Source of the DNA: a virus
Lineage: Duplodnaviria; Heunggongvirae; Uroviricota; Caudoviricetes
IMG/VR virus record: IMGVR_UViG_2563366989_000001
DNA: 37,433 bases
Reading direction: 5' to 3' (one strand)
Part shown: positions 16,470 through 35,341 of the stretch, piece after piece
How positions within the stretch are numbered: position 1 is the first letter of the stretch
Layout of the letters: every line of letters starts with the position of its first letter
Notes under the pieces: generated by a model
Told to the model about the DNA's origin: nothing
What the model saw: only the letters and a program-made list of their open reading frames with translations
Databases searched by the model: none
Position numbers and translations under genes: made by a program

Positions 16470-17885
16470 TCAACCTACACCACAAGGAATTGAGTAACTG
16501 GAATAGTCGGGTTGCGCAGCCGACTCCGGGCAATGCATACACATCATCAGCGCATCAGCCAGGTTAGGAGATGGAATACCGAGCTTCTGCTTCATTTCGA
16601 CCTTAGTCATTAGCTCCAGCTTCCCGTTGTTATTGAATTTGCGCTGAATCTGCGTCAGTTCTGCAAACAGCTTCTCCAGCATCTTCTCGCCTATCGCTTC
16701 TTTGTCGAAGCTCAGCATGTCGTCGGGGTCTGCATACTCACCGTGGACAACCGCCCGATATGTCAGATACAGCCTGTCAGCCAGCGCGTAATAGAATTGC
16801 GCTCGCTTATTGCGGAATACATCACCAATAGTGCGAACGTTGTCGCCCTGTACGACTTCATCAGCCCATGCTCCGGCCTGATACGGCGCATCTTCATCGA
16901 ATGGCGATTCACTGCCCTTGAACATCGTGGCGGTGATTTTCTTGCCGGAGAACGCTTCCGTTGTCTGTCTGCGTAGGCCCGCACCGACGCCATCACCATC
17001 CCACAGGTAATGGTCAGCGCCGTCTTCAATCGCCAGCGAAGTAGCCCAGTCAGCACCCTCGTTGATGTCCATCAGCAGACCTTCGGCAATGCGCTTAACT
17101 ACCGAACCGTGACGCGATGCGTAACCTTTAGCATCTGGCCCTGTATCTGACGGGTCATGCGCAGAGACAACAGCGCCTTTCGCTTTCCATCCGAGTTTCT
17201 TGTGCGCATCGGTTGCGGCTTCAAGCCATTCACGTTTGATGATTGCCATATCACTTGCGCTTACTGGCTCACCAAGCCAGATGTGACGATACAGTGTCGG
17301 ATTTCTGCGTTTACACTCTTCCATCTCCAGACGGAGAACTTCAGGAAAATGCGGGTTGTCGGTGTAGTTCACCGTCAGCAGGCAAATATCATCGGGAGGA
17401 TTTACAACGAATCGCTGATAGGTATCGTCGAGTATGTTCTTCGGGTTAAAGCTCACCCATATTTCGGAAAACGGCTTGCGGATGGTTGGTATCAGGATAT
17501 CCCATGATTCCTTCGTTACCGCTTCCGCTTCTTCCACCCAGCAGATATCAATGCCTTCGAGCGATTTAATCTTCGTCGGGTTGTTTTTGATGCCGTAGAA
17601 CATGAACTCAGCATTCGTTCCGAGATGACGAATCATGGAACGCTGAATTTCAAACTCAGCCGAATACCCTTCACGCTCGATGGTATCTTCAAGCAACCGG
17701 ATTACCGAATCGCTGATACTGTTTTGCAGTTCACGAGCGCAGAGAATACGCACTGGCTGCCGACGCGCCGCTTCAACAAGCAGCCTCGCAATTGCCCATG
17801 ATTTACCGCTACCTCGACCGCCTTTGGCGACTTTGTAGCGATGCGCCTCAATGAACGGTTCAAAGATAGGATTAATCGAGGTCAT
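16470..17885 (-). CDS. Terminase large subunit
   Basis: 471 aa; N-terminal Walker A-like YKVAKGGRGSGKSWAIAR; overlaps the small subunit gene by 4 nt. Confidence 0.9.
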   Translation of the reverse strand: MTSINPIFEPFIEAHRYKVAKGGRGSGKSWAIARLLVEAARRQPVRILCARELQNSISDSVIRLLEDTIEREGYSAEFEIQRSMIRHLGTNAEFMFYGIKNNPTKIKSLEGIDICWVEEAEAVTKESWDILIPTIRKPFSEIWVSFNPKNILDDTYQRFVVNPPDDICLLTVNYTDNPHFPEVLRLEMEECKRRNPTLYRHIWLGEPVSASDMAIIKREWLEAATDAHKKLGWKAKGAVVSAHDPSDTGPDAKGYASRHGSVVKRIAEGLLMDINEGADWATSLAIEDGADHYLWDGDGVGAGLRRQTTEAFSGKKITATMFKGSESPFDEDAPYQAGAWADEVVQGDNVRTIGDVFRNKRAQFYYALADRLYLTYRAVVHGEYADPDDMLSFDKEAIGEKMLEKLFAELTQIQRKFNNNGKLELMTKVEMKQKLGIPSPNLADALMMCMHCPESAAQPDYSSYSIPCGVG

Positions 17886-18307
17886 TTTCCGAACAGAGTG
17901 CTCATCGGTGATGTTTCAATCTGAATTGCGCCGCCGTCTTTGCCGACAAGCTCATTAGTTACCTTGTCTCCATACTTACGGGGATTCATTCTGGCCAGCG
18001 CCCATTTGCGGGTATCAACGCGAAGTCTTGCCTTTGCCACCTCGGCGGCATCAGGGATTACGTCGTCAGCAATTTCGAATATCTCTTCGAAAATAGAGTC
18101 GGCCCGAGTCTCTGTTGCCTTCGCGTACTGGTCACGAAACTCCTGATGTTCAGCCAGCCAGCGAAAAACTGATGTTTTGCTCGGCATTCCTGGGCGTTCG
18201 CAAACTTTGCGCAGACTCTCACCGGAGGAAAGCAATGCGCAAATGTCATTAGCCACCTCCGGCATATAATCAGAGGGGCGACCACCTTTCTTTTTCTCAG
18301 TCGCCAT
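17882..18307 (-). CDS. Terminase small subunit (Sf6 gp1-like); pac site expected within the gene
   Basis: 141 aa; GRPSDYMPEVA...VFRWL...RLRVDTRKWALARMNPRKYGDKV matches Sf6 small terminase as recalled. Confidence 0.85.
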   Translation of the reverse strand: MATEKKKGGRPSDYMPEVANDICALLSSGESLRKVCERPGMPSKTSVFRWLAEHQEFRDQYAKATETRADSIFEEIFEIADDVIPDAAEVAKARLRVDTRKWALARMNPRKYGDKVTNELVGKDGGAIQIETSPMSTLFGK

Positions 18308-27089: not shown

Positions 27090-27118
27090 ATAATACGATA
27101 TGTACTTTTAGAATGCAA
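27090..27118 (-). promoter_or_regulatory. pR promoter for cro
   Basis: Minus-strand TTGCAT-17 bp-TATTAT about 27 bp upstream of the cro ATG. Confidence 0.6.
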
Positions 27119-27166
27119 ACAAAAAAATACATCTTGTGCATGGATGATTTTAGTACAGAGCGTAAT
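27092..27166. promoter_or_regulatory. Candidate OR operator region (two related 15-mers)
   Basis: aatacgatatgtact (27092-27106, overlapping pR -10) and agtacagagcgtaat (27152-27166) share the AGTACA...CGTA.T pattern with a site at pL. Confidence 0.4.
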
Positions 27167-27175
27167 AATAAGGGT

Positions 27176-27835
27176 ATGAAAATGAAATGGTATGAACTGG
27201 CTAGATCCAGAATGAAAGAGCTCGGCATAACTCAAGAGAAGTTAGCTGAAGAGCTTGGTATGACGCAGGGTGGAATTGGTCACTGGTTGCGCGGATCTCG
27301 TCATCCATCTCTTGACGAGATTGGTGTGGTGTTTAAATACCTTGGTATTGATAACGTCTCATTCAACCACGACGGTACATTTTCACCTGTTGGCGAATAC
27401 TCATCTGCCCCCGTTAAAAAACAATATGAGTACCCTGTTTTTTCTCATGTTCAGGCCGGGATGTTCTCGCCTGAGCTTAGAACCTTTACCAAAGGTGATG
27501 CGGAGAGATGGGTCAGCACAACCAAAAAAGCCAGTGATTGTGCGTTTTGGCTTGAAGTTGAAGGTAATTCCATGACCGCGCCAACAGGATCCAAGCCAAG
27601 CTTTCCTGACGGGATGTTAATTCTCGTTGACCCTGAGCAGGCTGTTGAGCCAGGTGATTTCTGCATAGCCAGACTTGGTGGTGACGAGTTTACCTTCAAG
27701 AAACTGATCAGGGATAGCGGTCAGGTGTTCCTACAACCACTAAACCCGCAATATCCAATGATTCCATGCAATGATAGCTGTTCCGTAGTAGGGAAAGTTA
27801 TCGCCAGCCAGTGGCCTGAAGAGACATTTAGTTAA
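27176..27835 (+). CDS. cI: Immunity repressor cI: distinct N-terminal HTH domain fused to a lambda-cI-type C-terminal dimerisation/autocleavage domain
   Basis: C-terminal ~125 aa ([34 protein letters not shown]...[11 protein letters not shown]) almost identical to lambda cI as recalled; N-terminal HTH differs; start at ATG 27176 or 27182 (ATG 27113 lies in the pR -35). Confidence 0.85.
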
Positions 27836-27857: not shown

Positions 27858-27887
27858 ACAACAATAACCCGACCTTAGCGTCGGGTT
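27858..27887 (+). terminator. Intrinsic terminator after cI
   Basis: acccgac-cttagc-gtcgggt hairpin followed by ttttcttttt. Confidence 0.7.
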
Positions 27888-27961: not shown

Positions 27962-27990
27962 TTGACTCAGTAAAGTACACATCGTACTAT
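27962..27990 (+). promoter_or_regulatory. pL promoter with overlapping operator-like palindrome
   Basis: TTGACT-17 bp-TACTAT; agtacacatcgtact (27974-27988) overlaps the -10 and resembles the OR 15-mers. Confidence 0.55.
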
Positions 27991-28107: not shown

Positions 28108-28155
28108 GATGCAATGCCGAAGCAACTCTCTCAGGAGTAGCTTCGGGATTGCATC
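28108..28155 (+). other. Large leader hairpin upstream of the N-like gene (candidate RNase III/translation-control structure)
   Basis: 16-nt arms gatgcaatgccgaagc / gcttcgggattgcatc (one mismatch), 16-nt loop; ends 15 nt before the N SD. Confidence 0.5.
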
Positions 28156-28180
28156 GCCAGAGTTTATTCGGGAGGAATCC

Positions 28181-28453
28181 ATGTCCAGAAAAACAGAATT
28201 TAAAGGAACCGCAGCTTCTCGCCGTAGAGATCGTCGCGCAAATCTGCAAAGTCAGGAGGCGATCAGCTCCGACAAGCTACACAGGCCAACCCCTTCACGA
28301 GTGGTCTTGCAATGCAAGCGCAAACCAGCAATGAGAGCAGAAGTGATAACTCTGACAACGTTGACCAGAAAATATGAAGGTTCAACTTGTCTTCCGAACG
28401 TAGCTATTTACGCGGCAGGCTACCGGAAATCAAAACAACTGACGGCGAGGTAA
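28181..28453 (+). CDS. N-like transcription antiterminator (P22 gene 24 type)
   Basis: Arg-rich motif ASRRRDRRANLQ near the N-terminus; C-terminus AIYAAGYRKSKQLTAR resembles P22 gp24; ATG 28181 with GGAGG upstream. Confidence 0.75.
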   Translation: MSRKTEFKGTAASRRRDRRANLQSQEAISSDKLHRPTPSRVVLQCKRKPAMRAEVITLTTLTRKYEGSTCLPNVAIYAAGYRKSKQLTAR

Positions 28454-28455
28454 TT

Positions 28456-28818
28456 ATGGGTCAGGAAGAAAAATATGAGCTTAAAAAGCTCATTGAAGAA
28501 GACGCCATAGAAGAAATTGCAGCATTAACAACAGCTATAAAGAATATTAGGTATGCGCTAAATACGCTTATCTCCTCATGCGACAAAAATAGCAGGGAAT
28601 TTTTGATACTTGGCGCAGCTCTAGGAATAGTTGATGCGGCAACGCTTCACCTAATTACTCATGACGATATTCTTATTGAGCCGTATGAAACATTACTGCT
28701 TGTCAGGCAAAAAATGGCTGATGCCGCAGCAAATGGAGACCTTCAACTTTACATCGACTTAAGGAAAGTATTAAGGCGAATGGTCAGAACTGAAGGAGAT
28801 ATCCCCCTGACAAAGTAA
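28456..28818 (+). CDS. Hypothetical early-left protein (ral/gene-17 position)
   Basis: 120 aa from ATG 28456 with GAGG upstream, directly after the N-like gene. Confidence 0.5.
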   Translation: MGQEEKYELKKLIEEDAIEEIAALTTAIKNIRYALNTLISSCDKNSREFLILGAALGIVDAATLHLITHDDILIEPYETLLLVRQKMADAAANGDLQLYIDLRKVLRRMVRTEGDIPLTK

Positions 28819-28848
28819 GGGGGTGAAGAGGCTATTTCAGGAATAAAA

Positions 28849-29343
28849 TTAATAATTTGTCAGCGGCGGTACATATACAGGCTTAGGGTCTGGCGCTCTA
28901 TACATCCGGTATTCATTCTTACAGCGAGGACATGAATGCACAAAGAACCCATTAGATTTTATAGTAACCGTGCTTGGTTGAAGTATCGATATTTTATGTT
29001 CGCCGAAGCAATGTGCACAAAGGTTATGCTGCTGAATAGAAGGATCGGAATGACTCTTAGGTCTATACACGGCAGAACCACCTTCAGTTGTATGAAGTTC
29101 ATAATTCTCAGCTTGCACAACAAACATCTTGATTTTTCTATTTTCATCTCGAAGCTTCATTGCGATCTCCTTCTCGGCCTGATAAAGGCCAGAGAGCTCC
29201 GCATTAAGCATCTGTAAATCAGTTATTCTTTGGTGTAGATCTCCAATAGCTTTAGCGATAACCGCATCGTCTCTGGTTTCTTTTATTGTCTTCAGCAGAT
29301 CATAAGCCTGTTTCGCGGCAGTTATACCAGATAACACATCCAT
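28849..29343 (-). CDS. Antisense-oriented hypothetical protein: N-terminal coiled coil plus C-terminal Cys4 zinc-ribbon
   Basis: 164-aa ORF, ATG at 29343; CAHC...CPRC motif; opposite strand to the whole pL operon; direct repeats upstream. Confidence 0.6.
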   Translation of the reverse strand: MDVLSGITAAKQAYDLLKTIKETRDDAVIAKAIGDLHQRITDLQMLNAELSGLYQAEKEIAMKLRDENRKIKMFVVQAENYELHTTEGGSAVYRPKSHSDPSIQQHNLCAHCFGEHKISILQPSTVTIKSNGFFVHSCPRCKNEYRMYRAPDPKPVYVPPLTNY

Positions 29344-29482
29344 ATAAATTACTCTCTTACTGTAGGGGTGAGAGGATTTTACTATTTTTCTCGCTGTAGG
29401 GGTACACGAGAACCACCGAGCCTGATGTGGTTAAAAGACAGGCACAATCTTTACTACCGCAATCCACTATTTAAGGTGATAT

Positions 29483-29569
29483 ATGGAAGAAGAATTTGAA
29501 GAGTTCGAAGAGCATCCTCAGGATGTGATGGAACAATACCAGGACTATCCGTATGACTACGACTATTGA
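29483..29569 (+). CDS. Possible very acidic 28-aa peptide
   Basis: ATG 29483 with AGGTG 5 nt upstream; MEEEFEEFEEHPQDVMEQYQDYPYDYDY; too short for the ORF track. Confidence 0.3.
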   Translation: MEEEFEEFEEHPQDVMEQYQDYPYDYDY

Positions 29570-29753
29570 TACAAATCAATGGTGTGGACAATTCAAACGA
29601 TGCAATGGATGCAAGCTGCAATCGGAATGCATGGTTAAGCCTGAAGAAATGTTTCCTGTAATGGAAGATGGGAAATATGTCGATAAATGGGCAATACGAA
29701 CGACGGCAATGATTGCCAGAGAACTTGGTAAACAGAACAACAAAGCTGCCTGA
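29553..29753 (+). CDS. Small Cys-rich protein (kil position), function unknown
   Basis: 66-aa ORF with CGQFKRCNGCKLQSEC; lies upstream of the cIII-like gene. Confidence 0.45.
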   Translation: MTTTIDTNQWCGQFKRCNGCKLQSECMVKPEEMFPVMEDGKYVDKWAIRTTAMIARELGKQNNKAA

Positions 29754-31919: not shown

Positions 31920-32213
31920 ATGCCAGCGCCTCTGTATGGTGCGGATGACGCGCGCCGCTGTTCCGGCAATTCCGTATCGGAGGTGCTGGATAAATTCAGA
32001 AAAAACTACGACCTGATAATGTCGCTACCGCAGGAAACGAAAGAGGAAAAGGAATTTCGCCACTGTATATGGCTTGCAGAGAAAGAAGAACGCGAGCGAA
32101 TTTACCAGACATCAATCCGACCATTCCGCAAAGCCACATATACCCACTTCCCTGAAATTGACCAGCGCCTGCGTAATTACCGCTCACGCTATGGCGCTAT
32201 CAGTAATGACTGA
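31920..32213 (+). CDS. Hypothetical protein
   Basis: 97-aa ORF, ATG 31920 with AGGA upstream. Confidence 0.5.
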
Positions 32214-32223
32214 GGAATTTACC

Positions 32224-32391
32224 ATGAGAGGACTTGCATACAATCCCGGCATTCTTCCGGCAGAAATGATTATTCGCCAACGCGTAAAGCCAATGCCATC
32301 GAGAGAGGAATTGCTTAAGCGAAAGAGTTTCGGTTCTGTTAATGACAACAAATATCTGAATGCGATGTGGCGCAAAGGAGGCAGCCAGTGA
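32224..32391 (+). CDS. Possible small protein (55 aa)
   Basis: ATG 32224 with GAGG 8 nt upstream; stop overlaps the next gene start (GTGA). Confidence 0.35.
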
Positions 32392-32741
32392 GCAAGATTG
32401 ACTATCAGGCACTGCGTGAAAAGGCAGAGAAAGCAACGTGTGGTGTGTGGTCGCTCGAATATGGAGAGGGACGATTTGATGGTGATGATGCACTAATTCA
32501 TCGCGAGGTTGCTGGATATATTCCTATTTGCAGAATTGAAGGAGCGCATCCAGAAAGCCGTTTCTATGAAGATTTCCAAATGGAACAGCAGGCCAATGCT
32601 GAATTCATCGCCGCAGCCAATCCAGCTACCGTGCTGGCGCTGCTGGATGAAAACGAAAGACTGTGTCGCGAGCTGATAGCTCGTAATGGTGAGATTGAAG
32701 GGCTTCGGAAGTGGGCAGAAGAACGGGAGATGCAACCATGA
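32388..32741 (+). CDS. Possibly Ead/Ea22-like protein (paralog 1)
   Basis: GTG 32388 with AAAGGAGG 6 nt upstream; contains [23 protein letters not shown]; family name from memory. Confidence 0.55.
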
Positions 32742-33388
32742 TGACTTTTACCAGCGAACAATTAGCTACCTTACGTAAGATAGCGCAACAGGCAACACAG
32801 GGCGAATGGCGTGCATTCATCTCGCCGGACACTGGTACATATGCGGTGCATACGCCGGGGGATGAACGTTGCGGAGACATTATCAAATGGCCTGGCTTTG
32901 ACGACCAGAAAAATGCAGAGAACAACGCAGAATTTATCGCAGCTTTCAACCCTAAATTAGTGCTGGCGCTTCTGGATGAACGGGAAAGAAACCAGCAATA
33001 CATCAAACGCCGCGACCAGGAGAACGAGGAAATTGCGCTAACGGTAGGGAGGCTGCGCGTTGAGCTGGAAGCCGCAGAGAAGCGCATAGCAGAACTGGAA
33101 GCACGGGAAATAAAACCAGCCAAAGGCGAAGTTCTTGTCGTTGTATCTGGTTTTACTGGTTGCGGAAAAAGCGCCATTGCCGGGGAAATAGAAATCGCGA
33201 TGAAGGCTATTGGTGTACCGGTTCAGTGGACTAATGGCGATGCGGAAAAGCGCATGACAGGAGCTGACTGGCTGACAGCGATTGAGATGTACAAACCAAC
33301 TGTGCGCATCGTGGAAGTTAATGTGCCACGCGCCCCTGGCATTCGCATCAAAGGAGACGCAGGAGAACAAAACGATGAAAAACCGTAA
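32738..33388 (+). CDS. Possibly Ead/Ea22-like protein (paralog 2)
   Basis: ATG 32738 overlapping the previous stop (ATGA); contains NAEFIAAFNPKLVLALLDERERN plus a coiled-coil segment. Confidence 0.55.
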   Translation: MMTFTSEQLATLRKIAQQATQGEWRAFISPDTGTYAVHTPGDERCGDIIKWPGFDDQKNAENNAEFIAAFNPKLVLALLDERERNQQYIKRRDQENEEIALTVGRLRVELEAAEKRIAELEAREIKPAKGEVLVVVSGFTGCGKSAIAGEIEIAMKAIGVPVQWTNGDAEKRMTGADWLTAIEMYKPTVRIVEVNVPRAPGIRIKGDAGEQNDEKP

Positions 33389-33551
33389 AGCAAAATTACT
33401 TCTTTTATCGCGTTCGACGGGGTACGAGAAGCTACCAATCAGCAATCACAAACGGGCGGTGATCGGCATGTTTGGTAGGGTGGTATTCGCATTTAACTAT
33501 AAACCCACCGCGTCGCGGAACAGACGAGAGAAGGGGGGCGCAGTGCGATGA
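33375..33551 (+). CDS. Possible small basic protein (MKNRKAK... copy 1)
   Basis: ATG 33375 with AGGAG upstream; 58 aa. Confidence 0.35.
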   Translation: MKNRKAKLLLLSRSTGYEKLPISNHKRAVIGMFGRVVFAFNYKPTASRNRREKGGAVR

Positions 33552-33950: not shown

Positions 33951-34558
33951 CCACTATTACCAGAGAACAGGCACAGAAAATTATTGAAGCAGCCGATGAG
34001 GTTATTAGTGCGCTGGCCGGAACTAATGAGGATGTTAACCCTGATAGCGATAACATGCTACGTCTGTGGGATGACCTGAATGACCGTCACGCGCCCCCTG
34101 AAGTTGTGCGTGAGCTGGCACGGATTGCGCTGGCATCGCTGGAAGCCGAACCTGTAAACCAAACTTACAAGTTGCCAGTTAATACACCTTGCCAAGATGC
34201 GCCAGCCCATATCTGGCTGCAAACAGCTGGAGTATGGCCAGAAGATGGCGAGTTAAGCGAATTAACGTGGTGCAGCCACAATCAGCACCATGATGACACA
34301 CTATATGTTCGAGCTGACCTTGTGAATGGCAACTATCCGGTAACTCCGGATGGTTGGATAAGCTGTAGTGAGCGAATGCCGGATGATGGTCAGCACGTAA
34401 TTATTTTATGTGATGGCGCATTCGTTCTTTATGCGCAATATCGAAACGGTGAGTTTTTTGATGTTGTCCGCAATGGTGAGGAGTTCTTCGAAACGCAGAG
34501 CCGCAATGTAACCCACTGGATGCCGCTACCAGAACCGCCTCGATTAAAGGAGCTATAA
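33947..34558 (+). CDS. Hypothetical protein, possibly DUF551-type C-terminal domain (recalled family)
   Basis: 203-aa ORF; C-terminal WISCSERMPDDGQHVIIL...THWMPLPEPP; ATGA overlap with upstream gene. Confidence 0.55.
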   Translation: MTTITREQAQKIIEAADEVISALAGTNEDVNPDSDNMLRLWDDLNDRHAPPEVVRELARIALASLEAEPVNQTYKLPVNTPCQDAPAHIWLQTAGVWPEDGELSELTWCSHNQHHDDTLYVRADLVNGNYPVTPDGWISCSERMPDDGQHVIILCDGAFVLYAQYRNGEFFDVVRNGEEFFETQSRNVTHWMPLPEPPRLKEL

Positions 34559-34672
34559 TAGTGAACTATTATATCTATTTGTATTAAAAGAGTTTTTATA
34601 AAATAAATCTTCCAAAGCATGTAAAAACACTGTTAATCTTAACGTGTGTGAAACGTGAAGAGAGGTGTTGAA

Positions 34673-34954
34673 ATGAGCATTCATGATTTGTGTGAAGATC
34701 AAGAGCAATGGGCTATGCAGACCCTTATGGGATCAGGAGTTCTTGCAAGGTGCAGAATCCATAACGATGTAATTTTAGACAGCGGAAATGATGCTTCTTC
34801 TGCTTATAAATTAGGAACTTACCTATATCAAAAAGATAATAGCTGCAACTTATTCAATACTCTTACTGAAGCCCGCGACGCAATAAAGGATGCATATGAA
34901 TCGTATTGTGGGATTGATGATTGCCCACAATGCTCAAAATACATTGACGATTAA
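34673..34954 (+). CDS. Hypothetical protein in a moron-like unit (AT-rich promoter region upstream, terminator downstream)
   Basis: ATG 34673 with GAGG 7 nt upstream; preceded by about 110 bp AT-rich DNA containing TTGTAT-18 bp-ATAAAT. Confidence 0.5.
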   Translation: MSIHDLCEDQEQWAMQTLMGSGVLARCRIHNDVILDSGNDASSAYKLGTYLYQKDNSCNLFNTLTEARDAIKDAYESYCGIDDCPQCSKYIDD

Positions 34955-34974
34955 TAATATGAACAAGTAACTAT

Positions 34975-35000
34975 CCTCGCATTCGCGGGGATTTCTTTTA
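34975..35000 (+). terminator. Intrinsic terminator after the 34673-34954 gene
   Basis: cctcgc-attc-gcgggg hairpin followed by atttctttta. Confidence 0.6.
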
Positions 35001-35029
35001 TCTGAACTCGCTACGGCGGGTTTTGTTTT

Positions 35030-35341
35030 ATGGAGATGATTATGGTCTGTTCAACATTCAACCCTCTAACGTTACAGAAATACCAGCCAGACCCTGAAGA
35101 TTTATGCTCACTGTGTGGCGGAAATCATGGTAAAGCCGCCATGATCGAATGTAAGGACAAAATCCACATTTGCCTTAATTGCGTTGATGTCCTCGTTGAT
35201 ATCAAAAATGAGAGAGAAGATAAAAAGCGTAGCGAGGCTGTTCGCGCCTTAGATTCATGGATGCGAGATGGGTATAGTGCCGCGCAAATTTATGACTTAG
35301 CAATATCAAAAGGTGAAATACCAGGAGTGCGCATCGAATAA
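35030..35341 (+). CDS. Small zinc-ribbon-like protein (CxxC...CxxC)
   Basis: CSLCGGNHG...CLNC; probable start at ATG 35042 (GGAGA 5 nt upstream) within the listed ORF. Confidence 0.5.
   Translation: MEMIMVCSTFNPLTLQKYQPDPEDLCSLCGGNHGKAAMIECKDKIHICLNCVDVLVDIKNEREDKKRSEAVRALDSWMRDGYSAAQIYDLAISKGEIPGVRIE

Follow-up and report, generated by a model that had tools for sequence, protein, structure and literature searches.

The window analyzed here, a DNA stretch of 37,433 nucleotides, is a complete P22-like/lambdoid prophage. The gene that it carries at 28849-29343 on the minus strand probably belongs to the Rip1 family of anti-phage defense genes and represents the hkaP allele of phage HK620, an assignment that we made by comparing its sequence and predicted fold with those of characterized relatives. 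The gene is carried by 66 E. coli genomes, and the RefSeq label of its product in the records listed, 'hypothetical protein', can now be replaced by that of a putative Rip1-family (HK620 HkaP-type) defense gene with a sieB-type promoter.

A conserved antisense gene in the early-left operon

The minus strand of the window carries the late genes and the pR operon, and the plus strand carries cI, a pL-like promoter, N and the early-left genes. The gene and its surroundings are as follows.

27113-27835, plus strand: cI
27866-27887: cI terminator
27962..27990, plus strand: pL-like promoter TTGACT-17-TACTAT, its position in agreement with the HK620 pL/OL annotation
28181..28453, plus strand: antiterminator N (H19B/21-type), 90 aa according to the HK620 annotation (Pfam N_peptide, E 5.7e-32), in an operon convergent to rip1
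28456..28818, plus strand: hkaQ, 120 aa, all-helical (phrog_7374), in the pL operon
28819..28831, minus strand: 3' flanking repeat CCTCTTCACCCCC, after the rip1 stop
28849..29343, minus strand: rip1-family gene (HK620 hkaP allele), 164 aa

The initial annotation had singled out 28849-29343 as the only sizeable gene on the strand opposite to the pL operon. According to the list of open reading frames it is indeed the sole convincing minus-strand gene within that operon (27.9-37.4 kb), the further minus-strand ORFs of at least 90 aa (32200-32493, 32626-33177 and 33038-33445) all overlapping plus-strand ORFs. One of these, the 183-aa ORF at 32626-33177, lies opposite an Ead/Ea22-like gene (32711-33388, plus strand; phrog_250, E 6.5e-63) and matches phrog_13760 with its residues 27-85 (E 5.5e-23). 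We take it for a probable shadow ORF, annotated as a gene in the records of other phages.

The product of 28849-29343 has 34 homologs with 48-99% identity in Escherichia, Salmonella, Serratia, Yersinia, Pantoea, Hafnia, Edwardsiella and Sodalis. A profile built on these 34 sequences retrieved 2140 representatives of 50%-identity clusters at E≤1e-3, nearly all of which are 140-190 aa long and are matched over their full length. Because homologs occur across the Enterobacterales and the profile matches are full-length, 28849-29343 is a real conserved gene and a chance ORF is excluded.

In the AF2 model of the 164-aa protein (pLDDT 79.6), helices spanning residues 3-21 and 26-80 are followed by a small beta/zinc-ribbon domain, in agreement with the combination of a coiled coil and a Cys4 ribbon that had been proposed from the sequence.

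Residues 3-80: N-terminal helical hairpin or long helix (AF2 model)
C109, C112, C138 and C141: C-terminal Cys4 zinc ribbon (CxxC...CPxC)

The four cysteines are invariant in both close and distant alignments, the latter with members down to ~25% identity, and L121 and Q122 are likewise invariant across distant Rip1-family members. No transmembrane segment was predicted in any family member (the maximum Kyte-Doolittle mean over 19 residues was below 1.4) and none of them carries a signal peptide. Their most hydrophobic stretch is usually formed by the N-terminal ~20 residues, which are rich in Gly, Ala and Ser.

Relationship to HkaP and Rip1

A tblastn search of GenBank phages showed the product to be 98.8% identical to HkaP of HK620, a phage sequenced in 2001, and matches of at least 95% were also found in HK629, HK630 and an Stx1a phage. 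The RefSeq note on HK620 hkaP reads 'putative superinfection exclusion protein'. The protein is a member of phrog_1244 (E 1.2e-50 over residues 1-158), the function field of which is given as 'unknown', and searches of Pfam, NCBIfam and PADLOC returned sub-threshold noise only (Zn_ribbon_SprT, E 0.014; Cas10, E 0.002).

A profile and structure search, which the initial annotation had proposed as a check, led to Rip1. The family profile matched PDB chain 9oox_L, 'ring interacting pore 1 (Rip1)', with an E-value of 1e-17 (7e-10 with the single sequence), and the 9oox chains were the sole significant Foldseek matches (E 2.7e-6, probability 1.00, TM 0.56/0.69). BLASTP against HK446 gp37 (Rip1) gave 27% identity over 145 aa (E 2e-13). 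The PDB entry, released on 2026-02-04, is entitled 'Cryo-EM structure of the Escherichia phage HK446 Rip1 in complex with the Enterobacteria phage T6 small terminase'. The structure comprises 12 chains of Rip1 and 11 of the small terminase (T6 TerS according to the title), and T4 gp16 matches the terminase chain with an E-value of 4e-106. The earlier statement that the protein is undescribed and matches nothing recognizable has to be withdrawn, as the gene is already catalogued as HK620 hkaP and belongs to a family with a solved structure.

The similarity to the characterized Rip1 and to phrog_1244 extends over the full length of the protein, which has the Rip1 fold, i.e. long N-terminal helices and a C-terminal Cys4 ribbon within ~150-170 aa. 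The gene is prophage-encoded and antisense to the surrounding operon, with a promoter of its own that was placed by homology; Rip1-family genes were antisense in every context examined. HK446 Rip1 is also 164 aa long, with a helical N-terminal half and a Cys4 ribbon, and it shares the ...SILQ... and CxxC/CxxC motifs. Its gene is found in the same slot and orientation, antisense and next to N, behind a virtually identical promoter/leader of ~105 nt. It differs from the window's gene in that the amino-acid identity is only 27%, HK446 does not have hkaQ, and HK446 rip1 overlaps the 3' end of N. As the identity is this low, the binding partner of the HK620-type allele could differ from that of HK446 Rip1.

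More distant relatives are encoded by Mu-like Pseudomonas phages of the genus Casadabanvirus. JBD30 gp30, D3112 orf25 and their DMS3 homolog belong to the same family over their full length, with 27-32% identity (E 3e-16 at 27%), and they are also antisense to the surrounding operon. However, they lie between TerS and TerL in the late operon and are not preceded by a sieB-type leader. In this slot, the Rip1 homolog therefore adjoins a gene of the protein class that Rip1 reportedly senses. The antisense TerS-TerL slot of JBD30 gp30 (L002, 3498-3992) and LPB1 ORF25 (L003) is the one occupied by the unrelated tab in JBD26.

A 2025 meeting report (PMC12908700), which attributes RIP1 to the Maxwell laboratory, describes it as prophage-encoded and as blocking the replication of an incoming phage, and words the formation of a pore by RIP1 as something that the structure 'suggests'. 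One sentence of a 2026 preprint (bioRxiv 10.64898/2026.04.30.721860) cites Rip1 among the sensors of the small terminase subunit. The Rip1 mechanism considered below is based on the PDB title, the meeting report and this one citing sentence. JBD30 gp30 is mentioned in PMC11445458, with reference to Tsao 2018, as a moron with an anti-phage effect, and the entry in Appendix Table S1 of that article, again citing Tsao 2018, carries the label 'blocks phage genome injection'. Such a phenotype, which sets JBD30 gp30 apart from HK446 Rip1, does not fit the sensing of a late protein. With these reports, the role in lysogen exclusion or defense that had been suggested for the gene gains support from its homology to Rip1 (9oox; PMC12908700) and to JBD30 gp30 (PMC11445458). 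A literature search, the coverage of which did not extend to the primary Rip1 report, found no experiments on the HK620-type allele.

Promoter and leader

The region upstream of the gene could be aligned with the annotated P22 sieB promoter, which placed the following elements.

29376..29406, minus strand: promoter homologous to the P22/lambda sieB promoter
29406-29401, minus strand: TGTACC at the -35 position
29381-29376, minus strand: -10 element TAAAAT
29394..29403, minus strand: direct repeat ACCCCTACAG, copy 1, overlapping the -35 position
29369-29360, minus strand: direct repeat ACCCCTACAG, copy 2, beginning at the predicted +1
29375-29365, minus strand: repeat CCTCTCACCCC, at the +1
29344..29369, minus strand: predicted 26-nt 5' UTR, with +1 = A29369 by homology to the mapped P22 start
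29358-29352, minus strand: Shine-Dalgarno-like AAGAGAG

The P22 RefSeq record annotates both the sieB promoter (TGTACC...TAAACT) and a mapped 'sieB RNA start site'. The mapped start (L135:2728) is the A of the second ACCCCTACAG and is found 7 nt past the -10 element, and the geometry is the same in the window. The window leader aligns base for base with that of P22 and does not differ from the lambda sequence preceding sieB through ...ACCCCTACAGCGAGAA. A homology block shared by the window and HK620 begins 104 bp upstream of the ATG. This leader is conserved upstream of every enterobacterial homolog examined, even where the protein is only 27% identical or the flanks are unrelated. In the pair HK620 and HK446, near-identical leaders (29344-29448 of the window, minus strand) precede Rip1 alleles of such low identity.

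In 28 diverse leaders, the T, the A and the final T of the -10 element are invariant and the spacer is variable, as would be expected if the sigma-70 -10 element is functional. The -35 element agrees with the consensus in 2/6 bases. Because it is so poor, a generic promoter scan missed the rip1 promoter, which was located by its homology to P22. Since the sieB promoter/leader precedes rip1, transcription should start at ~29369, independently of pL, and continue in the lysogen. The idea that the gene can be expressed while pL is repressed, put forward in the initial annotation on the basis of strand, is thus supported by homology to the mapped P22 promoter.

The second copy of ACCCCTACAG was outside the search pattern with which the leaders were collected, yet it is conserved in the alignment of the 28 leaders. 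A GhoS-like antisense gene (L136-L138) is preceded by a variant leader with TTTCCACAGTCAAA in place of each ACCCCTACAG copy, which points to the pair as a functional unit, possibly the site of a regulator.

The sieB slot and its occupants

Lambda sieB (34482-35036) is antisense and abuts N, i.e. it occupies the same slot as rip1. HK446 rip1 adjoins the N 3' end and precedes ral, cIII and kil, and the HK446 record notes the similarity of gp37 to HK620p16. In prophages of Salmonella, Serratia and Pantoea, the homolog is again an antisense gene, with cI/N on one side and cIII/kil on the other, and in related E. coli genomes the alternative occupant of the slot is annotated as 'super-infection exclusion protein B'. 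Downstream in the pL direction, the plus strand of the window encodes a lambda orf28-like acidic peptide (MEEEFEEFEE...) and ral (phrog_1055, E 1.9e-49) at 29484-29753. As this segment does not differ from lambda, the rip1 cassette is flanked by an N/hkaQ module of HK620 type and a ral module of lambda type.

The gene shares its slot, its orientation and its promoter/leader cassette with sieB of lambda and P22, and both would be lysogen-expressed exclusion genes. The proteins, however, are unrelated. SieB is ~192 aa long and has hydrophobic segments, and all-vs-all BLASTP puts SieB (62 sequences) and Rip1 (28 sequences) in separate clusters. The likeness to SieB is one of position and regulation only. 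P22 sieB also has an internal esc start, a conserved equivalent of which is not evident in Rip1; we considered an Esc-like internal start at M73 and dropped it, M73 being kept among close homologs only and not in HK446 or JBD30.

When viral contigs were scanned for TACCCCTACAGNGAGAA, at least 120 loci (L013-L132) were obtained. Among the matches listed, the gene following the leader is SieB in ~60 cases and Rip1 in 28, is absent or a remnant in ~27, and is of another kind in a few. Rare other ORFs behind the leader, again among the matches listed, are 80 aa and 286 aa long. In the window, CCTCTTCACCCCC and CCTCTCACCCC are imperfect direct repeats that bracket the rip1 ORF. At 'empty' sites in L040, L043, L051 and L055, the leader is joined directly to the 3' end of hkaQ and a single copy of the repeat is found. 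Such an arrangement is consistent with the gain and loss of cargo by recombination between the repeats.

Complementary segments around the promoter

RNAalifold gave a weak consensus on the 28 leaders (-3.2 and -6.2 kcal/mol on the two strands), after which helices were specified by hand and counted in the leader alignment. The structures considered in the window are the following.

29414..29443, minus strand: interleaved complementary segments upstream of the promoter, GCCTG (29443-29439)/CAGGC (29424-29420) and CCAC (29430-29427)/GTGG (29417-29414)
29353..29375, plus strand: terminator-like hairpin with a T-run on the pL-transcript strand, complementary to the rip1 5' UTR/+1 region
28803-28823: 6-bp G/C hairpin (CCCCCT...AGGGGG, 9-nt loop) that spans the hkaQ stop, between the convergent hkaQ and rip1

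The GCCTG/CAGGC and CCAC/GTGG helices were paired in 92% and 96% of the cells of the alignment, with compensatory changes at 2/5 and 3/4 of their pairs, respectively (CCTC/GAGG, CTAC/GTAG and GCCGGG/CCCGGC are examples of such variants). Their covariation score was reached by none of 500 shuffles, and controls in which the helices were slid were 35-45% paired. The interleaved segments have either a pseudoknot-like topology or that of alternative hairpins. The mapped sense transcript does not include them, so any action would be at the level of DNA or of the RNA made by read-through from pL. A search of Rfam found nothing in 28700-29700 at E≤10.

We also considered an mRNA hairpin (helix 4) that spans the 5' UTR and would occlude the Shine-Dalgarno sequence. 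It was dropped, with 60% of its cells paired and its 5' arm upstream of the mapped +1. In this window, the hairpin at 29353-29375 contains a G-T pair on the plus strand, which is a C-A mismatch on the minus strand. The hairpin at 28803-28823, which lacks a T-run and went undetected in the terminator scan, may serve as a 3'-end structure in both directions.

Alternative explanations

The gene had initially been suspected of acting together with the convergent 120-aa gene, hkaQ. The latter could, for example, encode an early anti-Rip1 that protects the prophage's own lytic cycle, similar to the Tab/anti-Tab pair of JBD26, in which an antisense defense gene is accompanied by an inhibitor gene on the operon strand (PMC10884400). 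In line with this, hkaQ is present in all 7 of the 7 phage records that carry a >95% identical rip1 allele, and among phage records it is found beside the HK620-type allele only. However, it is absent beside rip1 homologs of 79, 70, 65 and 27% identity, HK446 Rip1 included. More E. coli genomes contain hkaQ than this rip1 allele (96 versus 66), some prophages have hkaQ with rip1 exactly missing, and a 64%-identical hkaQ homolog that directly follows N faces a different antisense gene. Furthermore, the AF2 model of hkaQ (pLDDT 71) is a four-helix protein with no significant fold match in the PDB and no informative family match. The pattern of occurrence points to a linkage of hkaQ with N and not with rip1, so the proposed partnership loses its footing. 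A two-gene system, for example one in which hkaQ counteracts Rip1, is quite improbable. Some database entries stretch hkaQ upstream to 148 aa under the name 'antitermination N domain protein' (P0184; window 28387-28455 / 28109-28453), which looks like an annotation artifact of the N/hkaQ junction.

Two further explanations do away with the sensing of a late protein or with defense altogether. Classical superinfection exclusion, with DNA entry blocked at the envelope as it is by SieA or Sim, would agree with the RefSeq note on hkaP, with the Appendix Table S1 label of JBD30 gp30 and with the location of rip1 in the sieB slot. Yet the RefSeq note is a prediction from position, a signal peptide or transmembrane segment is found in no family member, and in the solved structure the homolog binds the small terminase, which is a late protein of the cytoplasm. 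SieB itself is an abortive-infection protein and is not known to block entry. Taken together, these observations make an envelope block improbable. The remaining explanation is that the gene encodes a regulatory or housekeeping phage protein with no role in defense, for instance a zinc-ribbon protein that binds nucleic acids and influences pL transcription or recombination. Nucleic-acid binding is common among zinc ribbons, and the weak match to Pfam Zn_ribbon_SprT, although below the cut-off, would be in keeping with this. On the other hand, the gene is dispensable and patchy in its distribution, the slot being otherwise occupied by sieB or empty, the homolog was solved with the TerS of a foreign phage, and the Pseudomonas phage homolog shares a hot spot with the defense gene tab. 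We therefore regard this explanation as very improbable indeed. Zip and Tab (gp31) of JBD26 were also considered as the identity of the gene and rejected; they are different proteins, and Tab shares the slot only.

Proposed mechanism

A Rip1-type defense gene remains the preferred assignment, and its mode of action can be outlined by analogy with the homolog. A small soluble protein would be made constitutively in the lysogen, as PDB entry 9oox and the secondary reports on Rip1 lead us to expect. The ring-shaped small terminase of an unrelated infecting phage, a late product, would then be the platform on which Rip1 protomers assemble, in the way seen in 9oox. The assembly may form a pore, as suggested for HK446 Rip1 only, which would kill or disable the cell before progeny are released, so that the outcome would be an abortive infection and not a block to DNA entry. 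That no family member has a predicted transmembrane segment counts against this mode of action. Binding of a TerS ring as a ~12-mer is known for HK446 Rip1 with T6 TerS only, and it is by analogy that we carry it over to the HK620-type allele. The protection of lysogens against heterologous phages, reported for RIP1 (PMC12908700) and for JBD30 gp30 (PMC11445458), may likewise extend to this allele.

The window encodes a small terminase of its own.

17882..18307, minus strand: small terminase (Sf6 gp1-like), 141 aa (phrog_1482, E 7e-67; PDB Sf6 gene 1 protein, E 1e-80)

Being Sf6 gp1-like in the PDB search, it is not the counterpart of the terminase in 9oox. It does belong to the protein class that Rip1 reportedly senses and therefore bears on the question of self-immunity.

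Because rip1 is convergent to the pL operon, N-antiterminated pL transcription, either upon induction or from a superinfecting relative with the same leader, would generate an antisense RNA over the 5' end of rip1. This RNA would be expected to damp the synthesis of Rip1, by analogy with P22 sieB, where Ranade and Poteete (1993) reportedly found that the antisense RNA sas allows the phage to evade its own SieB.

Two other systems resemble Rip1 in part. Tab of JBD26 is also an antisense prophage defense gene with its own promoter, is found in the slot of the JBD30 Rip1 homolog, and acts late, on virion assembly (PMC10884400). In contrast to Rip1, it is an unrelated 83-aa protein directed against the tape-measure protein, and an inhibitor gene is dedicated to it. 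Conserved packaging proteins serve as the signal of infection also for Avs1-3 (large terminase) and TerI (small terminase), as stated in the preprint cited above (bioRxiv 10.64898/2026.04.30.721860). The Avs proteins, however, are large STAND NTPases with enzymatic effectors, whereas Rip1 consists of 164 aa without an enzymatic domain.

Implications

With the gene already catalogued in HK620, what the analysis adds is its annotation and the modular sieB-type leader. We tentatively propose, while recognizing that the odds are against so broad a scheme, that this leader is a portable cassette for interchangeable defense cargo, including SieB, Rip1, the 80-aa gene and, behind the variant leader, the GhoS-like gene. 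The complementary pL RNA would then be a shared 'password' that exempts relatives from killing by Rip1 or SieB, and the 27%-identical alleles would reflect diversifying selection on the terminase rings that are recognized. Since the leader is antisense within the pL operon, a phage with the same leader would make RNA complementary to it from pL. If the scheme is true, the resident cargo could be silenced by this RNA, which would act in cis once the prophage is induced and in trans when such a phage superinfects.

The shared promoter/leader also provides a handle for finding more lysogen-expressed defense genes in the N-to-cIII slot of lambdoid prophages. Furthermore, the Rip1 family is large, with its 2140 clusters, and is missing from Pfam, NCBIfam and PADLOC 2023, so the annotations of many prophages could be upgraded.
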